Below are positions 1,982 through 18,496 of a stretch of DNA of 64,000 nucleotides, piece after piece. This DNA is from a virus. The translations under genes were made by a program, and so were the position numbers. How positions within the stretch are numbered: the stretch's first letter is position 1; each line of letters opens with the position of its first letter. The stretch covers positions 64,001 to 128,000 of the IMG/VR virus record IMGVR_UViG_3300047560_001714. One strand, given 5' to 3'. Under the pieces are notes generated by a model, which was not told the DNA's origin, did not search any database, and was given only the letters and a program-made list of their open reading frames with translations.

Positions 1982-2540
1982 TAATAATTAAGGCACCTAT
2001 CAGGCAACACTCAGGCACACACACTTCATATGATACTCGCACCGGTAAGGAAAATAGGTGCCGCGAGATAAGGGATGTACTCCGCTTAGAGCGAACTGGG
2101 ATGAAGCAGTAAACTTAGCAACTACCCGAAAGGATGATGATTGGACATGCCTTCCCATATAACCAATTTTGCTATTTTAAGGAACCATAGGCTAAATGAG
2201 GGTTAAAAACCCACCTTATACATATATGATTAGTGTATATATGTATAAGCACCGTCAGACATAAGAAACAAAAACGCGCTTCGAGGTACCGGCTGACCGC
2301 CTCTGTAATTAGCGTAACACTAGTGTCCGTGATTAAGTAACTCAGATGAAATCACTGGATAATTTTTGAATACCATTTGTATTCAAATTTTTTTGCTCCC
2401 GTAAGGGGGCAATAATGTCCGAAATATCATAATCTAGATGAATATATATAAAGAAACATAATTAAACATCATGTCTCTATAATTAATTAAAAAAGATTGT
2501 GAGGAACGTAAGTGACGAACAGGGGAACATTGTTCCCCTT
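1982..2540 (+). ncRNA. Candidate large structured ncRNA (class unknown)
   Basis: No ORF of 60 aa or more. Many stems: GGCACCTAT/ATAGGTGCC, CTTATACATATA/TATATGTATAAG, TTTGAATAC/GTATTCAAA, TTGCTCCC-GTAA-GGGGGCAA, terminal AGGGGAAC-ATT-GTTCCCCT. Confidence 0.45.
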
Positions 2541-4008: not shown

Positions 4009-4093
4009 GGAGGTCGAGCGGCATAGGTGACTGCAGCGGACTGTAAATCCGTGCCTTTTACGGCACCTGGTTCGAATCCAGGGACCTCCACCA
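4009..4093 (+). tRNA. tRNA-Tyr(GTA)
   Basis: Cloverleaf; GCGGA-CTGTAAA-TCCGT; long variable arm; CCA end. Confidence 0.93.
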
Positions 4094-4101
4094 AATATAA
4101 T

Positions 4102-4175
4102 TGGGATATAGTGTAATGGTAACACAACAGATTTTGATTCTGTCATTCTAGGTTCGAGCCCTAGTATCCCTGCCA
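4102..4175 (+). tRNA. tRNA-Gln(TTG)
   Basis: ACAGA-TTTTGAT-TCTGT; U1-U72 mismatch; CCA. Confidence 0.93.
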
Positions 4176-4181
4176 AATGTT

Positions 4182-4277
4182 AGATTAAGATATAACAGGT
4201 TCGAATCCTGTCGTTCAAGGACAACCCCATAGGGGACGACTTACACTTGTGATCAAAGGAGATTTTATCTTAATCTG
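4182..4277 (+). ncRNA. YrlA-like tRNA mimic (variant of the CAGCA-stem family)
   Basis: 11-bp outer stem AGATTAAGATA/TATCTTAATCT + G, enclosing a T-arm (CAGG-TTCGAAT-CCTG) at the 5' side. Confidence 0.55.
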
Positions 4278-4282
4278 TTTTA

Positions 4283-4366
4283 GCTCTGGTGGCGAAATGG
4301 TAAACGCGGTGGTCTTAGAAACCACTACCGAAGGGTTTGGGAGTTCAAGTCTCCCCTAGAGTACCA
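4283..4366 (+). tRNA. tRNA-Leu(TAG)
   Basis: GTGGT-CTTAGAA-ACCAC; variable arm; CCA. Confidence 0.93.
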
Positions 4367-4383
4367 AATAAGACACATTAGGT

Positions 4384-4459
4384 GTGACTATGACGGAATT
4401 GGTAGACGTCCTCGATTGTGATTCGAGATTTTGTGGGTTCAAGTCCCACTAGTCACCCC
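4384..4459 (+). tRNA. tRNA-His(GTG)
   Basis: CTCGA-TTGTGAT-TCGAG; C73; CCA incomplete. Confidence 0.9.
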
Positions 4460-4479
4460 TAATGTGTTTAAAAATGATT

Positions 4480-4554
4480 GTCGCTATCGTCTATCGGTTA
4501 GGACACAAGATTTTCATTCTTGTAAGCGGGGTTCGACTCCCCGTAGCGACGCCA
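4480..4554 (+). tRNA. tRNA-Glu(TTC)
   Basis: CAAGA-TTTTCAT-TCTTG; CCA. Confidence 0.93.
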
Positions 4555-4563
4555 ATTAACAAA

Positions 4564-4640
4564 CTCCCATTAGCGCAGTCTGGTAGCGCGATCCGTTTGG
4601 GGCGGATAGGTCGGCGGTTCGAATCCGTCATGGGAGACCA
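4564..4640 (+). tRNA. tRNA-Pro(TGG)
   Basis: ATCCG-TTTGGGG-CGGAT; CCA. Confidence 0.93.
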
Positions 4641-4645
4641 AATAT

Positions 4646-4708
4646 AGGATGGTAACAGCAAATCTTTAGCCTTAGAATTCGGATCTAAACAGCCTAAACC
4701 CCATCCTG
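4646..4708 (+). ncRNA. CAGCA-stem element E1 (contains Leu-TAG loop heptamer CTTAGAA, weakly stemmed)
   Basis: AGGATGG|TAACAGCAA...CCATCCT|G. Confidence 0.65.
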
Positions 4709-4719
4709 CTTTACAATCT

Positions 4720-4777
4720 AGGATACAACCAGCAACAATTACGCCAGACTGATAATCTGAAAATGTAACGTATCCTG
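4720..4777 (+). ncRNA. CAGCA-stem element E2 with Ile(GAT) anticodon stem-loop
   Basis: AGGATAC|AACCAGCAA...CAGA-CTGATAA-TCTG...GTATCCT|G. Confidence 0.7.
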
Positions 4778-4800
4778 TTTTTATAACTAATCGGACAACT

Positions 4801-5055
4801 ATGAAAGTAACAAAACTTGACAAACGATTTACATTATATCACAGGGGTTATATTCACGCTGTCATTGATGTTGAACAGTATGGTCCATTTATGGATCATG
4901 TTAAAACCTACTTTGCAGATAAAAAACATTTGTATGATTTTACCACCCAACGTAAACGAATTCATGGGTTGCCTTCTTACCGACGCAGTGTAGCTGTAAT
5001 CGGTTTTAGACGCGAAGAAGATTTAACTATGGTCCTATTATCTTTTAACAATTAA
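4801..5055 (+). CDS. Small phage hypothetical protein (paralog of 5751..5990)
   Basis: Shares MK..KLDKR..LY..GY and F.REE.LT..LLS with 5751..5990. Confidence 0.7.
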   Translation: MKVTKLDKRFTLYHRGYIHAVIDVEQYGPFMDHVKTYFADKKHLYDFTTQRKRIHGLPSYRRSVAVIGFRREEDLTMVLLSFNN

Positions 5056-5099
5056 CGATTATTCCAGATTTATCAAAATAAAAACAATAAAGGTACAAT

Positions 5100-5327
5100 A
5101 TGAATAAAGAAGAATTACGCGAAATATTTTCAGAACAAACCACGAAATCGTCATCTGTGATGTTTATGATATCAACTTTAAAAGAAGTAATTGATGATAA
5201 ACAACATATTAGTTTACAAGTGTTAACCACTGAATCTGAAAAAATTGATGAACTGTTAGATAACGAATTGGTGGGATGTGAATTCGAATCATATGTGAAC
5301 GATATTCCAAAGTTCGTAAAACAATAA
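5100..5327 (+). CDS. Hypothetical protein
   Basis: ORF with AAGG Shine-Dalgarno. Confidence 0.55.
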   Translation: MNKEELREIFSEQTTKSSSVMFMISTLKEVIDDKQHISLQVLTTESEKIDELLDNELVGCEFESYVNDIPKFVKQ

Positions 5328-5442
5328 CAAATTATATGGATGAATACCGCATTTTTAGCTGGCTTACGATCGTTCATTATTAACAAATGTCATCGTCGGC
5401 TTGCAGACAAAAATCATCCAGCTTTAACCACAGGATAATATT

Positions 5443-5748
5443 ATGTTTTTTAATAAAGAATTACTAAACCAAATAGCGAAACTCACCACAATCGCTGAAA
5501 AGCTTCACGATGAAAATACAATGATGCGTAACACTTTTACAATGCTTGGGGAAACCATCAAAGAAATGGACGCTAAAATTAGCACATTAGAAGGTGAGGT
5601 TAAGAATTTAAGGACTCTGAATCAACTTGACCACCAGTACCCAATCGCAGTTAATAAGTGGGGAAGATGGAATTCTCACGGAGTTAAGAACCAAACGCCC
5701 CCAGATAAAGATTCTGGATGTAATCGTAAACACTGTGAATGTGACTAA
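5443..5748 (+). CDS. Hypothetical coiled-coil protein
   Basis: AGGA Shine-Dalgarno; heptad pattern. Confidence 0.6.
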   Translation: MFFNKELLNQIAKLTTIAEKLHDENTMMRNTFTMLGETIKEMDAKISTLEGEVKNLRTLNQLDHQYPIAVNKWGRWNSHGVKNQTPPDKDSGCNRKHCECD

Positions 5749-5750
5749 TA

Positions 5751-5990
5751 ATGAAAATTATTAAATTAGATAAACGCCATCGACTTTACTGTGAAGGATA
5801 TCGTTATGCAATTTCTAAAATTTATTTGGATAGAGGTATTGCAAAACATATCCGCAAGTATTATAATAAAGATTCGGAGATATTCAAGCAATATGCAACA
5901 ATCAATCGAACTTTTTTACCTTATGGATACATTGCATTTAAACGTGAAGAACATTTAACGCTGGCGTTGTTATCCTATGAAAATTATTAG
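5751..5990 (+). CDS. Small phage hypothetical protein (paralog of 4801..5055)
   Basis: Shared N- and C-terminal motifs. Confidence 0.7.
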   Translation: MKIIKLDKRHRLYCEGYRYAISKIYLDRGIAKHIRKYYNKDSEIFKQYATINRTFLPYGYIAFKREEHLTLALLSYENY

Positions 5991-6018
5991 TTGACAAATG
6001 AAAATGATGCTGTATAAT
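5991..6018 (+). promoter_or_regulatory. sigma70 promoter for second tRNA cluster
   Basis: TTGACA-16nt-TATAAT, 11 nt before a tRNA. Confidence 0.8.
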
Positions 6019-6029
6019 AGCTAACAAAT

Positions 6030-6106
6030 GGCGGTGTAGCTCAGTTGGTTAGAGCAATCCTTTCATACGGGATAGGTCGTAGGTTCGATTCCTACTGTCG
6101 CCACCA
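6030..6106 (+). tRNA. tRNA-CAT (elongator Met or Ile2)
   Basis: ATCCT-TTCATAC-GGGAT; CCA. Confidence 0.88.
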
Positions 6107-6114
6107 ACTAAATT

Positions 6115-6189
6115 GCCCTTATCGTTTAATGGATAGGACATGGGATTTCTACTCCCAGAATGGAGGTTCGATTCCTTCTAAGGGTGCCA
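6115..6189 (+). tRNA. tRNA-Arg(TCT)
   Basis: TGGGA-TTTCTAC-TCCCA; CCA. Confidence 0.9.
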
Positions 6190-6280
6190 GTGGTGCTAGA
6201 TATGGCCCACGTTAAAAACAGAATATATCAAACTGATTAGTTTGTGGTGTTAGTTGTGACCCACGTTAAAAACAGATAAC
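6190..6280 (+). repeat. Two tandem copies of a preQ1-I-like H-type pseudoknot motif
   Basis: GTGGTG.TAG....G.CCCACGTTAAAAACAGA at 6190 and 6244. Confidence 0.55.
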
Positions 6281-6287
6281 AATTTAT

Positions 6288-6362
6288 GCCCCTATAGCTC
6301 AATGGTAGAGCGTATTCCTCATAAGAATTTGGTTATAGGTTCGAACCCTGTTGGGGGCACCA
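6288..6362 (+). tRNA. tRNA-CAT (Ile2 or elongator Met)
   Basis: ATTC-CTCATAA-GAAT; CCA. Confidence 0.88.
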
Positions 6363-6368
6363 ACAAAT

Positions 6369-6443
6369 ATATCGGTGGTGTAATGGTAACATACGGGCCT
6401 CCAAAGCCTTGAGATTAGGGTTCAAATCCTTACCGGTATGCCA
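6369..6443 (+). tRNA. tRNA-Trp(CCA)
   Basis: GGC-CTCCAAA-GCC; acceptor ATATCGG/CCGGTAT; CCA. Confidence 0.85.
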
Positions 6444-6454
6444 AACAAAAAATA

Positions 6455-6544
6455 GGAAGAGTGGCAGAGTGGTTTAATGCAGCGGTCTTGAAAACCGCCG
6501 ACGGTTAGTCCCGTCCGTGAGTTCGAATCTCACTTCTTCCGCCA
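6455..6544 (+). tRNA. tRNA-Ser(TGA)
   Basis: GCGGT-CTTGAAA-ACCGC; long variable arm; CCA. Confidence 0.93.
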
Positions 6545-6549
6545 AATAT

Positions 6550-6605
6550 TGGATGCTAACAGCAATTACTTATAATTTCTTTTGGTGAAACTTAAATGCA
6601 TCCAG
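6550..6605 (+). ncRNA. CAGCA-stem element E3 with Gln(TTG)-like anticodon stem-loop
   Basis: TGGATGC|TAACAGCAA...TTTC-TTTTGGT-GAAA...GCATCCA|G; near-duplicate of 13935..13990. Confidence 0.7.
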
Positions 6606-6726
6606 CTTAAATAATGTTCTGTCGTATAACAGCTACATAGTAGTGAAATATGTCCCACACCACTGGGGAAGATATTGGTGAAAATCCATTCAGAACTAAC
6701 ATTTCTAAACAACTTGAGAGATTATT

Positions 6727-6996
6727 ATGAAAAAATTACTTTTACTTGCTGGCCTAACTTTATTAGTAACTGGTTGTGCTGCAACCGGTGAATTAGATAC
6801 AGTTCCGGACCGTGTTAACAAACTAGAAGCCGCTGATAAGGTATTCAAAACCGATTTGAAAACTTTAACTGATAAAACCGCATCGTTGACAAATACACAA
6901 CAACAATGTATTAATCATTGTAAACTTTCTTCAAGTCGAATGAACAATTTCGATAGAAAACTTGATAACGCTTTCAACAAAGCACTAATTAAGTAA
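6727..6996 (+). CDS. Small lipoprotein, Lpp/OprI-like coiled coil
   Basis: Signal peptide with lipobox LVTGC; heptad repeats; K-rich C-terminus. Confidence 0.7.
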   Translation: MKKLLLLAGLTLLVTGCAATGELDTVPDRVNKLEAADKVFKTDLKTLTDKTASLTNTQQQCINHCKLSSSRMNNFDRKLDNAFNKALIK

Positions 6997-7067
6997 TTTA
7001 AAAAAATCCTTGACAAATCTATAAACACACACTAGAATAACCTTTTATTTAATTGGAGGTAAACACG

Positions 7068-7265
7068 ATGTCTGAACAACTTAGTAGAATGATGTACACT
7101 GGCTTATTCCTTTTAATATTTGCGGTTATCTGTTCGACGTTTGGTGGATATGTCGTATATAACCACATGAGTAAAAATTATTTCCCAATCCAAGATAGCA
7201 ATATCGGTGGGTTTGTGTTTAGAAAAGGAAAAGTTTATTCATTAGAAGAAGTCAAGGATTTATAA
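7068..7265 (+). CDS. Small single-TM membrane protein
   Basis: GGAGG Shine-Dalgarno; hydrophobic N-terminal helix. Confidence 0.6.
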   Translation: MSEQLSRMMYTGLFLLIFAVICSTFGGYVVYNHMSKNYFPIQDSNIGGFVFRKGKVYSLEEVKDL

Positions 7266-7798
7266 TGAAAACTTTATCAACTATATTTTTTCTATTACTA
7301 TCACACTCAGCGTGTGCTGATGTGGTCAAAGTGATCGATACAAAGACCGGTAATATTGAATTAGTTAAAACACGTTCTTTCTCTCTAGCTAAAAATATAG
7401 ATAAAAAGATTTATTCAAAAGCTGACATAAATCGATTTGTCAAATTAGCATCAATTAAGAACAAGGTTGACGAAAAACTGATTCACGCTGTTATTAAGGC
7501 TGAAAGTAGTTATAGAAAAAATGCAATAAGTAAAGTAGGCGCAGCTGGTTTGATGCAACTCATCCCAGCAACTGCCACTAGATTTGGTGTGACCGACCGA
7601 TTTGATGTTAAACAGAATATTGACGGTGGTACCAAGTATCTTAAATTCCTACTAAATACGTTTAAGAACACACCACTTGCTCTGGCTGGTTATAATGCAG
7701 GGGAAAATGCAGTCATTAAATATAACTACAAAATTCCCAACTACCCAGAAACTAAAAATTATGTTAAAGTGGTGATGGAAAATTACGTAACGGAATAG
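7265..7798 (+). CDS. Soluble lytic transglycosylase with signal peptide
   Basis: IKAESS catalytic Glu, GAAGLMQL, ALAGYNAG, ET..YV. Confidence 0.92.
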   Translation: MKTLSTIFFLLLSHSACADVVKVIDTKTGNIELVKTRSFSLAKNIDKKIYSKADINRFVKLASIKNKVDEKLIHAVIKAESSYRKNAISKVGAAGLMQLIPATATRFGVTDRFDVKQNIDGGTKYLKFLLNTFKNTPLALAGYNAGENAVIKYNYKIPNYPETKNYVKVVMENYVTE

Positions 7799-7801
7799 AC
7801 T

Positions 7802-8563
7802 ATGATAACACTACTTAATATATATAAACAATCACTGTTAATGGCTAAACTAAGTTCATTGGCATATAATACTGACCAATCATTCAAAGATCTCGGATAT
7901 GATAGTAAGTATATATTTAGGAAAGGTTCCGAAGCATATGTTTTGTGGGATAACGACGATTTTATTATAGTTTGTCGTGGTACACAACCAAATAAGTTTG
8001 AAGACATTATAGCTGATATTAGACTCAATTTGGTACCTAGCTATTCTAACCGTGGTAGAGCGCACGCCGGATTTAAACACAGCGTCGATCTATTGTGGCC
8101 AGAACTGGAAAAACTTATTATTAAGTATGGTTCAAACAGAAAAATCTGGTGTACTGGACACAGTCTAGGTGCAGCAATGGCAACATTGATTACAGCAAGG
8201 TTGCCATTATTAAAGACCACTACCCCAACATTATTTACATTTGGTAGCCCTCGTGTTGGCGATGCTGATTTACACGATTATCTAATCGAGTTAGGTGTTG
8301 AACATCATAGATGGGTCAATAATGCGGATATGGTTACACGTAACCCAGTATTCCCATATCGTCATCACGGTATACTATATTATATGAATCATCATGGTGA
8401 ACTTGCCACGATGAGTATAATTAGAACCGCGATTGATAGAATTAAAGGTTTCATTACTGGTATTAAGAAAGGAAAAGTAAATTTCTTTGTTAATCACTTC
8501 ATTGAAAATTATATTAACAACATAGAAAAAATGGTTGATGATGAAAAAAATAGCAATTCCTAA
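7802..8563 (+). CDS. Lipase class 3 family
   Basis: CRGT, TGHSLG nucleophile elbow, FGSPRVG. Confidence 0.92.
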   Translation: MITLLNIYKQSLLMAKLSSLAYNTDQSFKDLGYDSKYIFRKGSEAYVLWDNDDFIIVCRGTQPNKFEDIIADIRLNLVPSYSNRGRAHAGFKHSVDLLWPELEKLIIKYGSNRKIWCTGHSLGAAMATLITARLPLLKTTTPTLFTFGSPRVGDADLHDYLIELGVEHHRWVNNADMVTRNPVFPYRHHGILYYMNHHGELATMSIIRTAIDRIKGFITGIKKGKVNFFVNHFIENYINNIEKMVDDEKNSNS

Positions 8564-8816
8564 TTTTACGGATGATGAATCCGACCCTTTCTGGTGGGAT
8601 AAATTTGCGTCAGACATCGGGTATCTTGACATACAGGAATACCAATATGATGAATATGCAAAAATATTAACGAATAAAGCCAATAACATATTATTAGAAT
8701 ATAATGCCACATTTGAGTTATCACTAATGGCCGATCCAAGTGCTATTTGTGATTATGCAGTTATTACCTTTAAAGATGAAGCAAAGTATAATTGGTTTTT
8801 ACTAAAATACACATAA
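8535..8816 (+). CDS. Small phage hypothetical protein
   Basis: C-terminal F.DE..Y.WFLLKY pattern; overlaps neighbouring genes. Confidence 0.55.
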   Translation: MMMKKIAIPNFTDDESDPFWWDKFASDIGYLDIQEYQYDEYAKILTNKANNILLEYNATFELSLMADPSAICDYAVITFKDEAKYNWFLLKYT

Positions 8817-9490
8817 TGCGGTCGGATGAATATAAAAATAAAATAATAAATAACCTTTCATCACCGTATAGGATTGATAATTTTATAACAGAAACTGAGC
8901 GTAATTTATTAAAAGACTATTTTAACGATAGTTCACATAAAATAATTAAAAATACTGGACCTATTGTACTACATCTATCTGAATATGATTACCAGAATGA
9001 AGTACTGTATGGTATAAAAACTAGAGTTGAGCAATTATTAAATTCATCTGTATATTTTGGGCATTTTTTCTATACGAATCGACCACATATAATTCATAAT
9101 GATGATAGTTTAAGTATCAACGTGCCGTATAAAGGTATAAACATACCAATCGAAACGTGTGAGGAAACATCATTGTGTATTTTTGATCAATTCTACCTAG
9201 ATGGCCCATGTAAATTTTTTAATGGGTCAACTGATATACCAACCTATCATAATTTACAAAAATATGAATATTCTGGTGTTCAAGGATTGGTCGATGGTGA
9301 TTTTGATGAAAGTTTTCGTATAAAACATTTAAACCATTTAGAACCATCATGGTTACAAGGGCTTTCTATAAAAGAAATGATTCAGCAAACCATGAATTGT
9401 GGTATAGTATTTGATACAGTAAACTTACACTGTTCAACAAATTTTAAACAATCCAAACTTGGATTAAGTTTTTTTACACATTTGATATGA
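8816..9490 (+). CDS. Hypothetical, possibly 2OG-Fe(II) oxygenase-like
   Basis: IHND and distal LHC motifs. Confidence 0.5.
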   Translation: MRSDEYKNKIINNLSSPYRIDNFITETERNLLKDYFNDSSHKIIKNTGPIVLHLSEYDYQNEVLYGIKTRVEQLLNSSVYFGHFFYTNRPHIIHNDDSLSINVPYKGINIPIETCEETSLCIFDQFYLDGPCKFFNGSTDIPTYHNLQKYEYSGVQGLVDGDFDESFRIKHLNHLEPSWLQGLSIKEMIQQTMNCGIVFDTVNLHCSTNFKQSKLGLSFFTHLI

Positions 9491-10026
9491 TCAACAAAGA
9501 TGCGTTCTCGAATGGCCAAATTGATAGTAAACTATGGTTATGCCAAGAATTAGAAAATTTAGAATGGACGTCAGAACTAACGCAAATATACGGTGGATGG
9601 TATGGAATTACCGCATTTTTATTATTAAGTCGTGAAAAATTCAAAGTAACGCGCATAGAAAGTTATGATATTGACCCATCGTGTCAGGTTATTGCTGATA
9701 TGATTAATGAAAATTGGGTATTTAAAAATTGGCAATTTAAAGCACATACCGCTGATTGTAATAATATATTAACACAGCCAGATTTAATTATTAATACCTC
9801 AACTGAACATTTTGATGAAATGGACTGGTTTCATAACATAAAACCAGGTACACGAGTGATATTACAAGGCAACAATATGCCACATGACGATCACTTTATA
9901 CACAGTCAATCACTTAAAATGTTTATTGACAACTACCCATTAACTAGTATATACTATACTGGTGAATTAGATTTTAAATACCCATCTTGGGGATTCACTA
10001 GATACATGATTATCGGTGTGAAATAA
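9487..10026 (+). CDS. SAM-dependent methyltransferase-like protein
   Basis: YGGWYG motif I, SYDID, INTSTEH. Confidence 0.65.
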   Translation: MINKDAFSNGQIDSKLWLCQELENLEWTSELTQIYGGWYGITAFLLLSREKFKVTRIESYDIDPSCQVIADMINENWVFKNWQFKAHTADCNNILTQPDLIINTSTEHFDEMDWFHNIKPGTRVILQGNNMPHDDHFIHSQSLKMFIDNYPLTSIYYTGELDFKYPSWGFTRYMIIGVK

Positions 10027-10046
10027 TCATATCACTAAATATTGTT

Positions 10047-10502
10047 ATGTTAAATATATACACAAAAGAATTGATGGGTAGTTTTAAAAATATTAATGAT
10101 AAGATTGACAAATTAAACGAAATTGGTGTAACATATACACGGATTGATCTTGATGGTAGTTACATTGGTGAAATAAAGTTCTTGCATAATGTTCCTTATC
10201 ATGATACAATATCTGTAAATGAAAATACTGAGAATTATCCAGAATTAAGAAACAAGTTTAAACGTGAACATACTCATGATGACTTTGAAATGAGATTATT
10301 CACACACGGTACAGCATCTTTTTTCATAAATGCTAATGATTTAGTTTATGAATTAGTTGTTGGACCAGCTGATTTAATCAGTATACCAGCTAATACCAAA
10401 CATTGGTTCGATGCTGGTGACAACCCAGACTTTTCGGCAATTAGGTTTTTTACAGACGAAGATGGATGGATTGCAAAATATACTGATGAAAAAAATGCTT
10501 GA
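10047..10502 (+). CDS. mtnD: Acireductone dioxygenase (methionine salvage)
   Basis: EHTH.D.E metal motif, GPADLISIPANTKHWF, IRFFTDEDGW. Confidence 0.85.
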   Translation: MLNIYTKELMGSFKNINDKIDKLNEIGVTYTRIDLDGSYIGEIKFLHNVPYHDTISVNENTENYPELRNKFKREHTHDDFEMRLFTHGTASFFINANDLVYELVVGPADLISIPANTKHWFDAGDNPDFSAIRFFTDEDGWIAKYTDEKNA

Positions 10503-10527
10503 CAAGTTAAAAAGATAAGTGTATAAT
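10499..10527 (+). promoter_or_regulatory. sigma70 promoter for tRNA/ncRNA operon
   Basis: TTGACA-17nt-TATAAT. Confidence 0.8.
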
Positions 10528-10544
10528 TTGTCACATATTGAAAC

Positions 10545-10556
10545 AGTTCTTTAACA
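10545..10556 (+). promoter_or_regulatory. rrn-type boxA antitermination-like site
   Basis: AGTTCTTTAACA, 10/12 match to E. coli TGCTCTTTAACA, in the transcript leader. Confidence 0.5.
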
Positions 10557-10562
10557 AATTAT

Positions 10563-10639
<77 letters not shown>

Positions 10640-10643
10640 ATAT

Positions 10644-10775
10644 AGGATCTTAACAGCATATTCTATTTGCCTTCTAAGCACGAGATGTGGGTTCGAATCC
10701 CACACGTAATTTGCGGACTAATGTAGCAAATAACGTTAGCTTAACGGGATAGAGCACGATAAAAATAAGATCCTG
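10644..10775 (+). ncRNA. CAGCA-stem element E5: circularly permuted tRNA-Arg(TCT)-like body
   Basis: AGGATCT|TAACAGCAT, TGC-CTTCTAA-GCA, T-arm GTGGGTTCGAATCCCAC, closed acceptor hairpin, D-arm TAGCTTAACGGGATAGAGC, AGATCCT|G. Confidence 0.75.
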
Positions 10776-10783
10776 ACCCTTAT

Positions 10784-10900
10784 AGGTTTCTAACAGCAAG
10801 TATTATGGGGATCGGAAATGGTAGGTTCGAGTCCTACTATGCAGTCGTATGATTGCATAAGGGCTACGGGTGGTGCCGCCGATTATAAAAATGAAACCTG
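10784..10900 (+). ncRNA. CAGCA-stem element E6: YrlA-like (T-arm, closed acceptor, D-arm)
   Basis: AGGTTTC|TAACAGCAA, ATCGG/CCGAT, GTAGGTTCGAGTCCTAC, TATGCAGTC-GTAT-GATTGCATA, GAAACCT|G. Confidence 0.75.
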
Positions 10901-10909
10901 TTAATTTTA

Positions 10910-11025
10910 TGAATGCTAACAGCAATTTAATAACACCTGACGTGTCGTGAGTTCGAATCTCACCGTGTAAGTAATTACACGTAGCTCAGTTGGTAGAGCA
11001 TCTGGCCATAAAAAAATGCATTCAG
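10910..11025 (+). ncRNA. CAGCA-stem element E7: YrlA-like (T-arm, closed acceptor, D-arm)
   Basis: TGAATGC|TAACAGCAA, GTGAGTTCGAATCTCAC, CGTGTAA-GTAA-TTACACG, TAGCTCAGTTGGTAGAGCA, GCATTCA|G. Confidence 0.8.
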
Positions 11026-11034
11026 TATATATTT

Positions 11035-11096
11035 TGGTTGTTTTCAGCAATTTTAAAGATTCGATTTCTTATTTTTCCCAGGTGGGATACAACCAG
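11035..11096 (+). ncRNA. CAGCA-stem element E8 (T-loop-like hairpin)
   Basis: TGGTTGT|TTTCAGCAA...AAGA-TTCGATT-TCTT...ACAACCA|G. Confidence 0.6.
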
Positions 11097-11343
11097 TAAC
11101 TTTTGACTTTTGGTAACACTATGTTTATACTTATTACTGCTGAATCAATTATATTATTATTAACAATATACTTTGGTTGGCGTATTTGGACAAAGATTTC
11201 AAACAAAATTACGGAGTTTTTCAAATGACTACTGATACATCGGATGATGAAGCTGTTTTAACAATGGACCCCGAAACTTTTGCAAAACTGTTTCGAGATG
11301 AACTTGAAAAGCTTAAACAAAAGCAGAACGACGCACAATAATT

Positions 11344-11430
11344 GGAAGGTTGCCAGAATGGTATTGGAGCGGATTGCTAATCCGTCAACGGGAAACCGTT
11401 GTATAGGTTCGAACCCTATACCTTCCGCCA
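11344..11430 (+). tRNA. tRNA-Ser(GCT)
   Basis: GCGGA-TTGCTAA-TCCGT; long variable arm; CCA. Confidence 0.93.
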
Positions 11431-11443
11431 ATTACCTATAAAT

Positions 11444-11510
11444 TGGATACATACAGCATATTTAAAATCACTGCAAATGACCTTTCCGGGTGATAACCGG
11501 AGGTATCCAG
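11444..11510 (+). ncRNA. CAGCA-stem element E9 with Cys(GCA) and Ile(GAT)-like anticodon hairpins
   Basis: TGGATAC|ATACAGCAT...TCA-CTGCAAA-TGA...TCCGG-GTGATAA-CCGGA...GTATCCA|G. Confidence 0.7.
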
Positions 11511-11532
11511 ATTAAATTTTAAGGAGACATTT

Positions 11533-11760
11533 ATGAGAATAGTAGTCCCAGCGTACCACGTACCAGTTGTTGCAAATTATATTTCAAGAGCACCATATGT
11601 AATTTGCCCAAAAGATGCGTTGGTATTAAATCGTTATGATGTTGGAACACAAAAAGAAACTGCTGATGTATTATTCTATACATTATATGCAGGTGGTGGG
11701 ATACATATGCATCGCGTTAAAGATGTGTCTGAAATAAACACAATAAACGTATACGCATAA
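11533..11760 (+). CDS. Hypothetical protein
   Basis: AAGGAG Shine-Dalgarno. Confidence 0.6.
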   Translation: MRIVVPAYHVPVVANYISRAPYVICPKDALVLNRYDVGTQKETADVLFYTLYAGGGIHMHRVKDVSEINTINVYA

Positions 11761-11784
11761 AAATTTAACAATAAAAAATAATAT

Positions 11785-11859
11785 TCCCTAATAGCTCAGT
11801 GGTAGAGCAGACGGCTGTTAACCGTCCGGTCGGTGGTTCGAGCCCATCTTAGGGAGCCA
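11785..11859 (+). tRNA. tRNA-Asn(GTT)
   Basis: GACGG-CTGTTAA-CCGTC; CCA. Confidence 0.95.
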
Positions 11860-11883
11860 ATTTAACATTAAAAAGGAAATGCT

Positions 11884-12036
11884 ATGAGCAATTGGCACGG
11901 TGGAAAGGGTTCTAAACAACGACCCTTTGATAGACAAAAATTTTCAGACAACTGGGACGCTATCTTTAAAAAAACCCCAGATAACGTCCAAGAAAATAAA
12001 CCAAACCAAGAAAAAGATGACAATGAAAAAAAATAA
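11884..12036 (+). CDS. Small phage protein (GGKGS..RP...NWD.IF type)
   Basis: AAGGA Shine-Dalgarno; 50 aa MSNWHGGKGSKQRPFDRQKFSDNWDAIFKK... Confidence 0.65.
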   Translation: MSNWHGGKGSKQRPFDRQKFSDNWDAIFKKTPDNVQENKPNQEKDDNEKK

Positions 12037-13540
12037 AATAGTAATTGTCGGGGGCGGTTCAGCTGGATGGATTACGTTATCATATTTATCAGCAACCACC
12101 GACGCTGAACTAGTATTAATCCACTCAAATGAAATCGATTCTATTGGAGTTGGCGAAAGCACAACACCAACTATTAAACATATTGCGGAAACCGTTGGCG
12201 TACCGGAATACGAATGGATGAAACAATCCAAAGCAACATTTAAATACGGTGTTGATTTCCATGACTTTAACAGTTTAGGTTCACGATGGGTACATACCTT
12301 TGATGATATGATACCACATCAGGCATTTACTAGACCATTATGCGATAATGGTAAAGAAGAATTTAAACGTGATTTGACTAGTGTTGATTATTTTTTACAT
12401 CATTATGGTAAAGATGTTTCATTATTTAACGAAACCCATGGACCACAAGAATACTTGATAAAAAATAAATTAAGTCCATTTAATAAAAATGGAATTAACA
12501 ATATAAACAAATTTCCAGGATATGGGTATCATGTTAATGCATTTGAATTTGGAAAATGTTTAAAAAATCACGTACCAGAAACCCGATATGAAGAAATAAA
12601 CGCAACCATAATTGAAGTTGTAGAAAATAATGATGGTATTGAGTACGTTGTATTAGACACTGGTGAAAAAATCTATGGTGATATATTCTTTGATTGCTCT
12701 GGGTTTACTAGGGTACTTATGAAAAATCTATCAACCTGGGATTCATATACTGAATTAGTAAATGACCGTGCAATATGGGGTGAAATTCATAATGTTACCT
12801 CAGACGAACCAGTTACGGGTGTATATGCGCAAGAATCAGGATGGATATGGACTATCCCAACATGGAACCAAATTGGTTCTGGGTATGTATATTCTAATAA
12901 ATTTAGTTCTGATGAACGGGCCGAAGAAGTAATTACAGACTTTTGGCGTGAACGTGGTTACAAATTTGTTAAAAGAAAACAAGTTGCGTTTGACGCCGGA
13001 AGATTAAACAATGTTACATTTAAAAATGTAATTAGCAATGGATTGGCCCAAAGTTTTATAGAACCATTGGAAGCCACCAGCTTAATGATTACGTGCGTAA
13101 CAGTACGCAGTTTTAGTGATTTATACAATAAGCATAAAATATGGAGTGCAAAAACTAGTTCAATTCATGATCGAATAATGAAACGGTTTATTGACCATAC
13201 TAAAAAGTTTGTTCTATATCATTATAGACTATCTGAAAGAATAGATACACCATATTGGCGGTCAGTTGGTAACGATCCAACCGCAGTGCAAGAGGTATCT
13301 GATTATATAGATATTTTGGCATCAAGTAAATGGGTTGGCAAAGGGGATACCCTATTGAATCAATGGAACTGGGTAAGTATGCTCCTTGGCTTTAATAAAA
13401 AATATACTAATAAATTAAAATCAGATGTTGACATTGACGATTATTTATTATATAATAAAACCTTAATTTATCATTACCAGTCATTAGTTGGTCAAAATAT
13501 TCCAATACTTGATTTGTTAAATAAAATTAATAATACTTGA
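12017..13540 (+). CDS. Tryptophan halogenase-like flavin-dependent enzyme
   Basis: GGGSAGW, GVGEST, DCSGF, GWIWTIP, FIEPLEATS; true start at 12017 or 12023. Confidence 0.88.
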   Translation: MTMKKNKIVIVGGGSAGWITLSYLSATTDAELVLIHSNEIDSIGVGESTTPTIKHIAETVGVPEYEWMKQSKATFKYGVDFHDFNSLGSRWVHTFDDMIPHQAFTRPLCDNGKEEFKRDLTSVDYFLHHYGKDVSLFNETHGPQEYLIKNKLSPFNKNGINNINKFPGYGYHVNAFEFGKCLKNHVPETRYEEINATIIEVVENNDGIEYVVLDTGEKIYGDIFFDCSGFTRVLMKNLSTWDSYTELVNDRAIWGEIHNVTSDEPVTGVYAQESGWIWTIPTWNQIGSGYVYSNKFSSDERAEEVITDFWRERGYKFVKRKQVAFDAGRLNNVTFKNVISNGLAQSFIEPLEATSLMITCVTVRSFSDLYNKHKIWSAKTSSIHDRIMKRFIDHTKKFVLYHYRLSERIDTPYWRSVGNDPTAVQEVSDYIDILASSKWVGKGDTLLNQWNWVSMLLGFNKKYTNKLKSDVDIDDYLLYNKTLIYHYQSLVGQNIPILDLLNKINNT

Positions 13541-13565
13541 CATTATAAATAAATACTGATATAAT
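13537..13565 (+). promoter_or_regulatory. sigma70 promoter
   Basis: TTGACA-17nt-TATAAT. Confidence 0.75.
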
Positions 13566-13576
13566 AGGTACATAAA

Positions 13577-13765
13577 ATGACAGTAGCTAGTAAAGCAAAC
13601 CGAAAAGCGAATCCGCTTAAAACTAAAAATGACAAAACACGTATTAACGTGTTAAGTGACAAACAGTTAGTATTAGCATTAGAAAAAGCAACACGCGGCC
13701 GTGATAAATCAAAAATCAGAAGTCGTATTGCATTTAAACTTAAAAATCATTCACAACAACCCTAG
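13577..13765 (+). CDS. Small basic hypothetical protein
   Basis: ORF directly after promoter. Confidence 0.6.
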   Translation: MTVASKANRKANPLKTKNDKTRINVLSDKQLVLALEKATRGRDKSKIRSRIAFKLKNHSQQP

Positions 13766-13774
13766 AGGTGTATT

Positions 13775-13921
13775 ATGGCAGTAGAAGTAAAAAAATGTAA
13801 TTGCAGTGGTTCACTAGCGGCTAAGTTCCAAGATAAAGAATATGGTCAAGGAATGCGCGTTATGAATCAAACCTTGAAAAAAGAATACAATTGTACAGTT
13901 TGTGGTGCAAAACACAAATAG
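13775..13921 (+). CDS. Small Zn-binding protein (CxC...QD..YG.G.RV.N...CxxC)
   Basis: GAGG Shine-Dalgarno; 48 aa with CNC and CTVC. Confidence 0.65.
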   Translation: MAVEVKKCNCSGSLAAKFQDKEYGQGMRVMNQTLKKEYNCTVCGAKHK

Positions 13922-13934
13922 TTACACCTAATTT

Positions 13935-13990
13935 TGGATGCTAACAGCAATTACTTATAATTTCTTTTGGTGAAAATAAAATGCATCCAG
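13935..13990 (+). ncRNA. CAGCA-stem element E10 (Gln-TTG-like loop; duplicate of E3)
   Basis: TGGATGC|TAACAGCAA...TTTC-TTTTGGT-GAAA...GCATCCA|G. Confidence 0.7.
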
Positions 13991-14003
13991 CATAAATTAA
14001 TAT

Positions 14004-14079
14004 GCCACCGTAGCTCAATCGGTAGAGCGCCTCACTTGTAATGAGGATGTTGAGGGTTCGATTCCTTTCGGTGGCTCCA
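14004..14079 (+). tRNA. tRNA-Thr(TGT)
   Basis: CCTCA-CTTGTAA-TGAGG; CCA. Confidence 0.95.
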
Positions 14080-14102
14080 TTCACAATAACTTAAATGATC
14101 TT

Positions 14103-14309
14103 ATGACACCGGAACCAGACGATTTAGAAAACATTTTAAATAATCTTACTGATGACGATTTCGACAGCATCAACGAATCTATAAATTCTGACATTGACGA
14201 CGAGTTCGACGACGATGAGGAACTGTCGATTGAAGAAATGAAAGATATTTGGGGCGTAGACTTTGATGACGATGATTTAGACCCATTTGATATCCCTGGC
14301 GACAGGTGA
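14103..14309 (+). CDS. Very acidic small protein
   Basis: D/E-rich 68-aa ORF. Confidence 0.55.
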   Translation: MTPEPDDLENILNNLTDDDFDSINESINSDIDDEFDDDEELSIEEMKDIWGVDFDDDDLDPFDIPGDR

Positions 14310-14319
14310 TAACCACTTT

Positions 14320-14376
14320 TGGATACTTACAGCATATTAACTTCGACTTGAAACTTGAAAACAACTATGTATCCAG
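14320..14376 (+). ncRNA. CAGCA-stem element E11 with Ser(TGA)-like loop
   Basis: TGGATAC|TTACAGCAT...TTCGA-CTTGAAAC-TTGAA...GTATCCA|G. Confidence 0.65.
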
Positions 14377-14400
14377 AATTAAACATGTAGTGTAATCTGA

Positions 14401-14471
14401 GCGGGATTGGTATATAGGTTGTGCCTTAGCCTTCCAAGCTAATGAAACGAGTTCGACTCTCGTATCCCGCT
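14401..14471 (+). tRNA. tRNA-Gly(TCC), no encoded CCA
   Basis: TTAGC-CTTCCAA-GCTAA; U73; acceptor stem extended by flanking inverted repeat. Confidence 0.88.
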
Positions 14472-14498
14472 CAGATTACAATCCGTGTAACTCTTACA

Positions 14499-14688
14499 AG
14501 AATAGTTTCAGCAACATACTACAAATAACTTACTGGAAATGGTATTTTATCGTGGGTTTTAGCCCAACAAAACCGATGGAATATCTAGTGTTGGTAGAAT
14601 ACCAAATAGGCTAGTAGAATACTAGATAGGATCTGGTTGGGTAGACCGAGACTGACTGAAAACTAATTTCACCCAAAAAGCTATTCTG
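14499..14688 (+). ncRNA. CAGCA-stem element E12 (long, multi-hairpin)
   Basis: AGAATAG|TTTCAGCAA...CTATTCT|G; internal hairpins TTGGTA-GAA-TACCAA and CTAGTA-GAA-TACTAG. Confidence 0.6.
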
Positions 14689-14716
14689 TTTCCTTTAACC
14701 TTACAATGAGAAAAAT

Positions 14717-14989
14717 ATGTCTAATATTACAGCAAACCATATCTTAGTAGAAACGCTTGAACAAGCACAAGACTTACAACGCCAGTTATCGGAAGGCGCA
14801 TCATTCTCAGACTTAGCAAAATCTCACAGCAAATGTCCGAGTGGTACACGTGGCGGTGATTTAGGTTCATTTGGTAGAGGCCAAATGGTACCAGAATTTG
14901 AAAATGCCGCATTTGGCTTAGATGTCGGTGGGTTTAGTGAACCAGTACAAACACAATTTGGATACCATTTAATTAATCGCACCGCTTAA
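14717..14989 (+). CDS. ppiC: Parvulin-type peptidyl-prolyl isomerase
   Basis: HILV, F.DLAK.HS.CPSG..GGDLG, MVPEFE.AAF, TQFGYHLI. Confidence 0.93.
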   Translation: MSNITANHILVETLEQAQDLQRQLSEGASFSDLAKSHSKCPSGTRGGDLGSFGRGQMVPEFENAAFGLDVGGFSEPVQTQFGYHLINRTA

Positions 14990-14990
14990 T

Positions 14991-15278
14991 ATGGATTACA
15001 CTGTATTATATGATCGGGTTTTAATTAAACCGATTGAAGAAAACAAAACATTAAGTTCTGGTATTGTTTTAGTAGCAGAACAAAAAAGTACAACCACCAC
15101 TGGTACAGTAATTGCAATTGGTGATGGAAAACAGTATGATAATGGTAAGATAATCCCATTAACAGTCCAAGTTGATGATAATGTGTTATTCATGAAAAAT
15201 ACCGGTATCCCAACTAAATTAGATGGCGTTGAATATCTTATCTTGCGAGAATCAGAAATTCTTGGTATCATAGAATAA
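14991..15278 (+). CDS. groES: Co-chaperonin GroES
   Basis: LYDRVLIK, SGIVL, GTVIAIGDG, ILRESEILG. Confidence 0.93.
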   Translation: MDYTVLYDRVLIKPIEENKTLSSGIVLVAEQKSTTTTGTVIAIGDGKQYDNGKIIPLTVQVDDNVLFMKNTGIPTKLDGVEYLILRESEILGIIE

Positions 15279-15291
15279 AATATAGTATTAA

Positions 15292-15387
15292 AGGTTAATT
15301 TCCGCATACCATTTTTCTCCAGAGATGTACAAGACCCCATTGATCAGTGGTGAGATATGAAAAATCTCAAATATGATCATTAACCTG
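15292..15387 (+). ncRNA. CAGCA-stem element E13 (CCGCA variant) with Phe(GAA)-like loop
   Basis: AGGTTAA|TTTCCGCAT...TGAGAT-ATGAAAA-ATCTCA...TTAACCT|G. Confidence 0.6.
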
Positions 15388-15402
15388 ATTACCCATACCA
15401 AT

Positions 15403-15477
15403 GCACCAGTGACAGAATGGCTATGTAGCAGTCTGCAAAACTGTTTAATGCAGGTTCGACTCCTGTCTGGTGCTCCA
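15403..15477 (+). tRNA. tRNA-Cys(GCA)
   Basis: GCAGT-CTGCAAA-ACTGT; U73; CCA. Confidence 0.93.
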
Positions 15478-15814: not shown

Positions 15815-15842
15815 TTGACAACCGCCAAAAACCTGGTATAAT
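15815..15842 (+). promoter_or_regulatory. sigma70 promoter of the TROVE/Ro60-like gene
   Basis: TTGACA-16nt-TATAAT. Confidence 0.8.
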
Positions 15843-15851
15843 TACCCACAT

Positions 15852-15887
15852 AGATTAGATACAGCAACTATTTTTTACACTAAACTG
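15852..15887 (+). promoter_or_regulatory. Minimal CAGCA-stem element E14 in the 5' UTR of the TROVE gene (candidate autoregulatory site)
   Basis: AGATTAG|ATACAGCAA...CTAAACT|G (6/7 bp), immediately before Shine-Dalgarno AAGGTG. Confidence 0.65.
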
Positions 15888-15900
15888 AAAGGTGAATTAC

Positions 15901-17304
15901 ATGACATTAATTGCAGAAAAAACAACAACAACAACAACAAATGGTATGGCGGCGTTAAACACATCAACGACAGCCCTTACCGATTTATTCTTTAACATTG
16001 GTGCTATGCGTGGTAAAGATATTATTCCACAATTCACCAGTGCATTATCTGAAAATCGTGAGTTAGCATTACGAATTGCACTATGGTCGCGTGATGCTCG
16101 TGGTGGCGCTGGTGAAAGACAACTTTTCAGAGATATTCTAAATCATTTAGAAAACACCGATGTTTCCGCCGCCGAAGCATTAGCAAACCGCGTTGGTGAA
16201 TTGGGCAGATGGGATGATTTGTTTGTGTTTAAAACCAAACATATGAAAGAATTTGGGTTTGAGTTAATTAAACAAGCGTTGGCAGCTAAGAATGGATTGG
16301 CAGCTAAATGGACCCCACGTAAAGGACCAATTTCGGTTGAATTACGCAAATACTTGGGTTGGAGTCCAAAGCATTATCGTAAAACATTGGTGGCATTGAC
16401 ATCAGTGGTTGAAACCCAAATGTGTGCTAATGATTGGGATAACATCAATTTCAGCCACGTGCCATCTGTTGCTAGTGCTAGATACAAAAAAGCTTTCAAT
16501 AGACATACACCTAAGTTTGCTGAATATGTTAATGCACTGGTTTCTGGTGATACATCAGTTAAAGTCAATGCTGGTGCAATCTATCCATATGATGTTTTAA
16601 GTGCGTTGAAAGGTTATAATGTTGATTCAACGATTAAAAACCATGTTATTGCACAATGGGCCGCATTACCAAACTTTGTTGGTGACGCTAATATTTTACC
16701 ATTAGTTGACGTTAGTGGTTCTATGTCGTGTTCAGCGGGTGGTAAAAACGCATCTCTAACTTGTATGGATGTTGCAGTTTCCCTTGGGTTGTATCTTTCA
16801 GATAAAAACTTAGGTGAATTCAAAAACAAGTTTATTACGTTTCATGAAAAACCAGAATTGATAACACTTGAAGGGGATATTGTTCAACAGAACCAGCAAA
16901 TGCTAAGATCAAAATGGGGCATGAGTACAAACTTGGAATCAGCATTTAACTTGATTTTAAATTTAGCAACCAGTTGCAATGTTCGTAACGCAGATATGCC
17001 AGAAATTTTGTTGATTTTATCGGATATGCAATTTAACCAGGCGGTTACATCTCCAAGTGATACCGCAATGGAAATGATTGAACGTGCATATGCCGCTGCT
17101 GGATATTCTGTTCCTAAAATTGTATTCTGGAATTTAAATGCAAGTGGGAATGTCCCAGTAACATCGGATAAATCTGGCGCAGCATTGGTATCTGGGTTCT
17201 CACCATCAATTATGACTAGTTTATTATCTGCCGATATGTCTGAGTTTACACCATACGGCATTATGATTAAAACAATCATGAATGAACGGTATGACCACCA
17301 GTAA
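15901..17304 (+). CDS. TROVE/Ro60-like protein with vWA domain (DUF2828-type)
   Basis: RDARGGAGER, GRWDDL, AAKWTPR, VNAGAIYPYD, VDVSGSM (MIDAS), LSDMQF, IVFWNL; start ATG 15901. Confidence 0.85.
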   Translation: MTLIAEKTTTTTTNGMAALNTSTTALTDLFFNIGAMRGKDIIPQFTSALSENRELALRIALWSRDARGGAGERQLFRDILNHLENTDVSAAEALANRVGELGRWDDLFVFKTKHMKEFGFELIKQALAAKNGLAAKWTPRKGPISVELRKYLGWSPKHYRKTLVALTSVVETQMCANDWDNINFSHVPSVASARYKKAFNRHTPKFAEYVNALVSGDTSVKVNAGAIYPYDVLSALKGYNVDSTIKNHVIAQWAALPNFVGDANILPLVDVSGSMSCSAGGKNASLTCMDVAVSLGLYLSDKNLGEFKNKFITFHEKPELITLEGDIVQQNQQMLRSKWGMSTNLESAFNLILNLATSCNVRNADMPEILLILSDMQFNQAVTSPSDTAMEMIERAYAAAGYSVPKIVFWNLNASGNVPVTSDKSGAALVSGFSPSIMTSLLSADMSEFTPYGIMIKTIMNERYDHQ

Positions 17305-17311
17305 TAACAGT

Positions 17312-17336
17312 GGAGGGGTTTTACCCCTCCTTTTTT
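17312..17336 (+). terminator. Intrinsic terminator after TROVE gene
   Basis: GGAGGGG-TTTTA-CCCCTCC + T6. Confidence 0.85.
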
Positions 17337-17652: not shown

Positions 17653-17766
17653 AGGCAGTTTCGGCACTGTATAACAGTATTACTGCCTCGGCTGAAGCGA
17701 AATGACCGAAATGGGCTGCTCTCACGGGGTTTCTGTAGTTGTACCTGACACACGAGAACAACTACA
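17653..17766 (+). ncRNA. Candidate structured (pseudoknotted) RNA upstream of Pth2
   Basis: AGGCAGT/ACTGCCT stem; TTTCGG/CCGAAA cross-pairing; TGTAGTTGT/ACAACTACA hairpin. Confidence 0.4.
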
Positions 17767-17785
17767 TCTATTTTATGTGGATAAT

Positions 17786-18256: not shown

Positions 18257-18496
18257 TTGATGCTGTGTTTTCCACATATTAAACCAATGAACTATATAAA
18301 CCAACGATTACGAAAAATAACTCAATATTTTACTGAACAAAATTATACACTAAGCGAACACGATATAGATTTTATCGGTGACATTTTAGCAAATGCTATT
18401 ATTGCTGGTAAAATTGATGATGAATTATTCCGAGATGCTATAAAATGGCGACAAGAACTTAGAGACACTAAAAATGACACTATTAACGAAAATTAA
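18257..18496 (+). CDS. Hypothetical protein
   Basis: ORF in operon; start uncertain. Confidence 0.45.
   Translation: MMLCFPHIKPMNYINQRLRKITQYFTEQNYTLSEHDIDFIGDILANAIIAGKIDDELFRDAIKWRQELRDTKNDTINEN

Follow-up and report, generated by a model that had tools for sequence, protein, structure and literature searches.

Candidate Y-RNA-like elements with anticodon-arm loops beside a Ro60-like protein gene in phage tRNA clusters

Handle elements in the tRNA cluster

The window analysed here is a stretch of 64,000 nucleotides (nt), positions 64,001 to 128,000 of the IMG/VR virus record IMGVR_UViG_3300047560_001714, and belongs to a virus contig of 188 kb. It contained a cluster of 17 tRNA genes (positions 4009–15477), small stem-closed elements interspersed among these genes, and a gene for a Ro60-like ring protein directly downstream (Table 1). 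The elements are very probably Y-RNA-like partner RNAs of this DUF2828 protein. An earlier note, made from the sequence, had read the hairpins of the short elements as isolated anticodon stem-loops that may serve as decoys.

The elements were located by searching for a closing stem of 7 bp, a 3-nt spacer, and then C(A/C)GCA(A/T). Thirteen elements (E1–E13) were obtained among the tRNA genes of the cluster; when the complete contig was scanned more strictly, the same 13 came up again together with one weak AT-rich match elsewhere. Across 80 IMG/VR loci, the consensus of this handle was NNN-C(A/C)GCA(A/T), following the 7-bp stem. The elements had no cloverleaf with a free acceptor end and were called tRNA by neither ARAGORN nor Rfam. 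When the window and four other loci were searched with Rfam at the gathering score, only tRNA and Polynucleobacter-1 were matched, and the elements matched no family.

Anticodon-loop hairpins in the window

The heptamers listed in the earlier note were all found at their positions: CTTAGAA at 4671, CTGATAA at 4749, TTTTGGT at 6580 and 13965, CTGCAAA at 11471, GTGATAA at 11490, CTTGAAA at 14347, and ATGAAAA at 15357. A hairpin with a stem of at least 4 bp, a 7-nt loop, U33, and a purine at position 37 was present in six of the eight short elements (E4 and E10 counted once), compared with 0.92 in dinucleotide shuffles, and none of 2000 shuffles reached this count. One of the six, CTTCGAC in E11, differed from the hairpin claimed earlier. 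Exact matches to real tRNA loops were found in 2/8 elements with a 3-bp stem (null 0.2, P = 0.012) and in 1/8 with a 4-bp stem (P = 0.067).

The pair probabilities of the folded RNAs separated these hairpins. The Ile arm of E2 was well formed (~0.9), as had been claimed, and showed the complete tRNA-arm pattern of a 5-bp stem and a 7-nt loop with Y32, U33, and R37; E1, E13, and the second hairpin of E9 were near this pattern. The hairpins of E13 and the second one of E9 were strongly paired (0.94–1.0). The Phe-like loop of E13 carried A32, whereas the Ile-like loop of E9 carried G32, which occurs in 1% of real tRNAs, and its reading as an anticodon loop is doubtful. E1 had been taken for a Leu hairpin, but its heptamer CTTAGAA overlaps the 5' strand of the stem and had a probability of 0 as a loop. 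The loop of E1 is instead the Arg-UCG-like ATTCGGA at 4677 (pair probability 0.6–0.9), which is in register with the loop of E2 and recurs on a different stem in another locus, L179. The Gln-like hairpins of E4 and E10 and the Cys hairpin of E9, described as well stemmed, had pair probabilities of at most 0.05, as did the Ser hairpin of E11. Better-stemmed homologues of the Cys and Ser loops were found in other loci.

The sequence TTTTGGT of E4 and E10 is a natural bacterial-type Gln-UUG loop with G37. Its Gln identity is nevertheless uncertain because the subfamily conserves only UGGU, with A at positions 32–34 in 8/14 variants. The UGGU of this subfamily (window 6580–6586 and 13965–13971; locus L003, 7757–7809; locus L125) is complementary to the tRNA 3' end ACCA, similar to a T-box antiterminator, and to judge from this complementarity the subfamily may read the CCA end rather than display a Gln loop. 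A full tRNA for Ile-GAU or Phe-GAA, reported as missing, was found nowhere on the whole 188-kb contig.

Table 1. Positions of the elements, genes, and signals in the window.
Feature	Position	Strand	Description	Basis
tRNA cluster	4009–15477	+	17 genes, elements interspersed	tRNA gene calls
E1	4646–4707	+	handle and anticodon-arm mimic, loop ATTCGGA 4677–4683 (Arg-UCG-like, G37), not Leu	folding, alignment with E2
E2	4720–4776	+	handle, outer stem, and Ile-GAU anticodon arm, loop 4749–4755; best example	folding, scaffold relatives
E3	5337–5420	+	CCGCA-variant handle, long hairpin, no convincing anticodon loop	element scan
E4	6550–6604	+	handle and weak 4-bp hairpin, loop TTTTGGT 6580–6586	folding, subfamily comparison
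E5	10644–10774	+	handle, Arg-UCU anticodon loop 10671–10677, T arm, capped acceptor stem, D arm	YrlA match, E = 0.97
E6	10784–10899	+	handle and permuted tRNA body, no anticodon loop	
E7	10910–11024	+	handle and permuted tRNA body; best YrlA similarity	RF02553, 37.7 bits, E = 2.5e-5, gathering score 69
E8	11035–11095	+	handle and hairpin with T-loop-like heptamer TTCGATT (11060–11066) in place of an anticodon loop	
E9	11444–11509	+	handle, weak 3-bp Cys-GCA hairpin 11471–11477, strong hairpin with loop GTGATAA 11490–11496 (G32)	
E10	13935–13989	+	near duplicate of E4, loop 13965–13971	91% over 76 nt
E11	14320–14375	+	handle and degenerate Ser-UGA hairpin 14347–14353	
E12	14499–14687	+	handle and large multi-hairpin cargo, no anticodon loop	
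E13	15292–15386	+	CCGCA-variant handle and long hairpin, Phe-GAA-like loop ATGAAAA 15357–15363 (A32)	
E14	15851–15888	+	cargo-free imperfect handle in leader of Ro-like gene, abuts Shine-Dalgarno sequence	promoter 15815–15842
Ro60-like ring protein	15901–17304	+	DUF2828 and DUF7788/vWA; phrog_850 RNA-binding protein	domain matches, structure model
Terminator	17312–17330		terminator of Ro-like gene	
Pth2	17702–18169		near Rnl1-like ligase	
YqeY	18474–18911		near Rnl1-like ligase	
RNA ligase	20210–21109	+	T4 Rnl1-like	tRNA-repair context, putative link

Anticodon-arm mimicry in other phages

The enrichment of anticodon-type loops over shuffles was strong in the window and also in 118 non-redundant short elements from other phages, in which the hairpins were picked blind to the loop sequence. 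A hairpin with a 7-nt loop was present in 112 of these (null 49); 57 of the 112 loops fitted Y32-U33-R37 (null 8%), and 48 were identical to real tRNA loops (null 1.7%). Within the 57 fitting loops, A34 occurred twice (null 48%) and stop anticodons were absent (null 9%). A hold-out set gave 13/15 hairpins, five of the 13 with exact real loops (null 2%). With anchoring on the loop only, the flanking pairs 30–40 and 29–41 formed in 36/39 and 37/39 elements (15 and 18 in the dealt null), and they used all four Watson–Crick types.

When the anticodons of homologous elements were compared, as the earlier note had proposed, 11 scaffold clusters held more than one. The scaffold to which E2 (Ile) belongs bore Lys, Thr, Ser, Arg, Phe, or Leu loops in other phages, with compensatory changes in the stem (alignment A2), and YrlA-like members can bear the same arm ahead of the T arm, as in E5. 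Drifting loops on conserved stems were not seen; the loop frame was kept, the stems covaried, and the anticodons switched. These patterns indicate that selection maintains anticodon-arm mimicry in many phages, and we consider it probable that the mimicry is functional.

Two simple origins were rejected. The arms were not copied from the cognate tRNA, as no 17-mer was common to arms and real tRNAs and the stem GC content was 28% versus 60%. Nor did an element replace a missing tRNA, the cognate being present across loci in 29/41 cases versus 27.6 expected by chance.

When the 80 loci were oriented by their Ro-like gene, the gene strand carried 345 elements and the opposite strand 9. About 170 loci gave 607 elements on the majority strand and 6 on the other, with 396 distinct sequences. 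The elements adjoined the Ro-like gene or sat in the tRNA cluster in phages Bas63, Ci1, nt-1, LeBron, P100, Aeh1, and phiM12, and the cultured phages with elements infect Escherichia, Citrobacter, Vibrio, Aeromonas, Sinorhizobium, Listeria, and Mycobacterium. A single negative control, T5 (25 tRNAs, in a genome without a Ro-like gene), had no elements in its tRNA region. One scan of bacterial contigs with narrow patterns, which does not establish absence, gave no chromosomal homologue.

In Bas63 (locus L081), four handle elements lay behind gp130 (13706–13772, 13873–13930, 14328–14395, and 14415–14540); the last, a YrlA-like body bearing a Thr-GGU arm (C33), overlapped an annotated small reverse open reading frame. 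Three tandem elements, AT-rich within a GC-rich genome, were located right behind the Ro-like gene of LeBron (locus L184, 21407–21654), the first with a Thr-GGU-like loop. A further class of 150–170 nt occurred upstream of the Ro-like gene (L029, 9448–9610; L040, 172–337; L052, 240–405; and others). It had a conserved paired TGGAG/TGAAG internal loop and was unlike tRNA.

Position bias and host-type features of the loops

The frequency of G or C at positions 34 and 35 matched that of real tRNAs (47–48%), whereas at position 36 it was 10% versus 47%. Among 65 cluster-distinct anticodons, the counts at positions 34, 35, and 36 were 33, 32, and 8. Common anticodons with A or U at 36 were seen in 16/19 cases versus 3/14 for G or C (Fisher P = 5e-4). 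Lys-UUU was the commonest anticodon among the elements, and Thr-UGU was among the common ones. Positions 34–35 varied, and the constant part was U36A37A38 or A36A37A38, which are the contexts of N6-threonylcarbamoyladenosine (t6A) and N6-isopentenyladenosine (i6A), respectively.

After U36A37A38, U39 was present in 25/33 elements versus 74/234 phage tRNAs, and in 6/19 elements with A36. The Lys-UUU arms contained U36AAUC in 7/8 elements and in 12/22 phage tRNAs. Of the proteobacterial Lys-UUU tRNAs among the matches listed, 14/15 had U36AAUC, a count made by eye for hosts that may differ from the actual one. By these counts, which are not independent of descent, the elements seem to resemble host tRNA more than the phages' own tRNAs do, because the host-type U36AAU was kept more often. 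Loops with G36 mostly had G37, whereas phage Gln, His, and Arg tRNAs have A37; G37 remains a weak host-type mark because it is the minority type of His tRNA in proteobacteria. In the fetched loci, the phage tRNAs for Gln-UUG, His-GUG, and Arg-UCG and most of those for Leu-UAG carried A37, and many for Phe-GAA carried G37. These position-37 variants are possible escape variants.

Ro60-like protein and gene neighbourhood

The structure model of the ring protein (pLDDT 70.8) contained a helical-repeat ring and a vWA fold, as in Ro60 and Rsr. The top Foldseek matches were all Ro60 (E values 4e-7 to 1e-3, TM scores 0.36–0.50): phage Ro60 (9kop/9l5y), Rsr (2nvo), and Ro (1yvp). The link to Ro60 was made by the fold search alone; Pfam gave matches to DUF2828 and DUF7788 but not to TROVE, and phmmer against the PDB matched no Ro60 chain. 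The gene family was found in 710 phage records, and its annotation in mycobacteriophages is Ro-like RNA-binding protein. The genes for Pth2, YqeY, and the Rnl1-like ligase were all within 4 kb downstream.

A handle element directly abutted the Shine-Dalgarno sequence of the Ro-like gene in 97/128 related loci (window 15851–15900). The loop of this leader element was CAU-like in 24/49 cases, compared with 0/129 for other short elements. The leader copy suggests autoregulation of the Ro-like gene. Pairing of the CAU loop with the gene's own start codon was considered and rejected, as no covariation was seen by inspection.

Comparison with known systems

The locus resembles Ro60/Rsr with YrlA and YrlB (PMC4201824; RF02553; phiLo, PMC12135203) in having a helical-repeat and vWA ring protein beside stem-closed small RNAs with a 5' motif. 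A terminal 5'/3' stem of the YrlA type was present on the strand of the Ro-like gene with the strand bias given above, and the stems covaried. The permuted tRNA body of YrlA (T arm, capped acceptor stem, and D arm) was found in E5–E7, as an RF02553 match below the gathering score, and was missing from the short class. However, the protein has DUF2828/DUF7788 instead of TROVE and 10–17% identity to Ro60 structures, and the RNA motif is CAGCA, the GNCGAA(N)G motif close to YrlA's 5' end not being found. Up to 15 RNAs occurred per locus, and the short class of 45–70 nt is an anticodon arm, which YrlA lacks. The system appears to be a variant branch of Ro60/Y RNA and not YrlA, because it lacks the TROVE domain and the GNCGAA motif.

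Gp130 of Bas63 (Felixounavirus) belongs to the same protein family, with 39% identity, and four handle elements are found at its tRNA genes. Its authors guessed that Y RNAs lie among these tRNA genes (10.1101/2024.10.10.617714) and neither identified nor tested them; the elements are candidates for these partner RNAs. The Bas63 case differs in that Ppl is a DNA exonuclease and in that its loops depart further from the canonical form (C33, A33). Phage tRNAs evading anticodon nucleases (PMC10264068, PMC11464382, PMC11555353, PMC12445682) share the genomic region and the proposed conflict, but they are complete tRNAs that resist cleavage and stand in for host tRNA, whereas the elements are unchargeable and keep cleavable host-type features. 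Class I RNAs of Dictyostelium (PMC7919456) have a length of 42–65 nt, a short terminal stem with compensatory changes, and a variable interior. An 11-nt motif adjoins the 5' strand of that stem; its conserved T3, C6, C9, A10, and A11 fit the handle when compared with the published description. They are eukaryotic, neither an anticodon cargo nor a Ro-like partner is reported for them, and the elements had no Rfam match to them. Literature searches, which left most subscription papers out of reach, gave no account of Y RNAs that have a CAGCA handle or an anticodon arm.

Proposed function and rival explanations

From the co-occurrence, the fold, and the leader copy, the 7-bp closing stem and the unpaired CAGCA are taken as the putative protein-binding handle, much as Ro60 binds Y RNA (PMC4201824, PMC12135203). 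The cargo would be an exchangeable module, which in the short class is an anticodon arm that mimics host tRNAs with U36-A37-A38 or A36-A37-A38. The ring would display this bait to host proteins recognising anticodon loops. The likeliest targets would be anti-phage anticodon nucleases (PrrC-, AriB-, or VapC-like), engaged and held or diverted rather than merely saturated. The phage Rnl1-like ligase could recycle nicked bait, and tethering to the ring could make the bait a trap.

The loops are likely bait for some host protein because the mimicry passes the enrichment and loop-conservation tests. That the targets are anticodon nucleases is given a probability of about 40%; they are rated likeliest because valid anticodons are kept, Lys-UUU is the commonest, PrrC reads the stem-loop, and repair genes are near. 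PrrC recognises mainly the anticodon stem-loop (PMC1484252), and it also requires t6A37. U36AAUC is the site of AriB, and U39A, an escape change of T5, abolishes cleavage (PMC12409363). A protein-tethered bait is more likely than a free sponge because a Ro60-like protein, which the earlier note had left aside, adjoins the elements, additional host tRNA had little protective effect, and AriB depends on distal contacts. The observation of the earlier note was largely right, with the corrections given above, and partly confirmed. Its decoy interpretation was partly supported: the mimicry stood, and a role as bait is likely, while anticodon nucleases are the proposed targets.

Several points weigh against nucleases as targets. 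C36 anticodons (Glu, Asp, Gly, Ala, Val) hardly occurred among the elements, and the targets of RloC and colicin E5 include C36-type tRNAs. The Gln, Cys, and Ser hairpins are degenerate in the window. The U39 excess could stem from one Lys-like ancestor or from AT-rich stems, and none of the counts are phylogenetically independent. AriB requires contacts outside the anticodon arm (PMC12409363), and supplying more of a cleavable host tRNA protected little against OLD and PrrC170 (PMC12445682, PMC11555353). The sole phenotype of the protein family is the counteraction of Ppl by Bas63 gp130 (10.1101/2024.10.10.617714); Ppl is described as a single-stranded DNA 3'–5' exonuclease (PMC12904381), and the Ro60 of a Thermus phage acts on PNPase (PMC12135203).

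These last cases favour a classical Ro60/Y-RNA tether, in which the particle engages 3'–5' exonucleases such as PNPase and Ppl, and the tRNA-like parts serve only folding, processing, or stability, or docking on tRNA-binding surfaces unrelated to defence. The precedent of RYPER, the slowing of PNPase by phage Ro60, and the presence of four elements in Bas63 agree with such a tether, but it leaves the diverse valid anticodons and the avoidance of A34 and stop anticodons unexplained, and it is considered rather unlikely. Enzymes that modify position 37 act in the contexts U36A37A38 (TsaBCDE), A36A37A38 (MiaA), and G36G37 (TrmD). The elements could be adaptors or sponges for these enzymes or for other loop readers such as synthetases, which would be recruited or whose marks would be needed. 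The change at 34–35 with 36–38 kept within scaffolds, the excess of A/U36 anticodons, and the G37 of G36 loops fit this idea. However, the avoidance of A34 and stop anticodons implies that the whole anticodon matters, which such enzymes do not need; several of them require a whole tRNA, and there is no clear gain for a phage that encodes its own tRNAs. A modifying-enzyme role is considered unlikely.

A damage sensor was judged improbable to a similar degree. In such a sensor, nicking of the weak, AT-rich arm would open the RNA, free an end for the ring cavity or release the ring, and switch on an activity or, through the leader copy, the ring gene. The stems are AT-rich even in the GC-rich mycobacteriophage LeBron, the leader element and its CAU-like loop are recurrent, and Rsr/YrlA of Salmonella is under RtcR control (PMC4201824), whereas the leader of the window is cargo-free and degeneracy is greatest in leader loops (U33 in 24/49). 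The elements could also be roleless relics of handles inserted in or fused to tRNA genes, with decaying loops, as the permuted tRNA bodies of YrlA-like members, the degenerate loops of the window, and the occurrence of A32 or C33 would allow. Chance mimicry by AT-rich hairpins, a caveat of the earlier note, is plausible for single cases (the second hairpin of E9, E13, and E4/E10); for the family it was refuted by the enrichment, hold-out, and covariation tests and has a negligible probability. Both chance and simple relics are disfavoured because of the enrichment, the covariation, the anticodon switches, which are limited to valid anticodons, the lack of copying or a stem shared with cognates, and the lack of a link to tRNA loss; relics are thereby very unlikely.

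Bait for anticodon nucleases would extend to a widespread counter-defence particle, in which a Ro60-like ring with exchangeable anticodon-arm or whole-body baits captures tRNA-targeting nucleases and is retargeted by an anticodon switch. This wider proposal is tentative and somewhat unlikely. If the bait reading is true, the elements would inhibit tRNA-targeting immunity by means of RNA and could be retargeted by a simple code. Phage tRNA clusters are read as nuclease-resistant replacement tRNAs; they appear to hold, in addition, selected unchargeable mimics of anticodon arms, attached to a putative protein-binding handle. With these elements, what the DUF2828 family does can be tested directly in E. 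coli.

Other features of the locus

The Polynucleobacter-1 RNA motif was above the gathering score at window positions 2034–2177, and two 33-nt direct repeats lay between tRNA-Arg and tRNA-Met (6190–6276). Genes within the tRNA cluster (11900–13540, 10047–10502, and 14717–15278) encoded tryptophan-halogenase-like, acireductone dioxygenase, parvulin, and GroES proteins. A permuted, two-piece transfer-messenger RNA was called by ARAGORN 1.3 kb upstream of the window (record positions 62328–62749). At the other end, an open frame of at least 2939 amino acids (window 55184–64000) continued past the window end.

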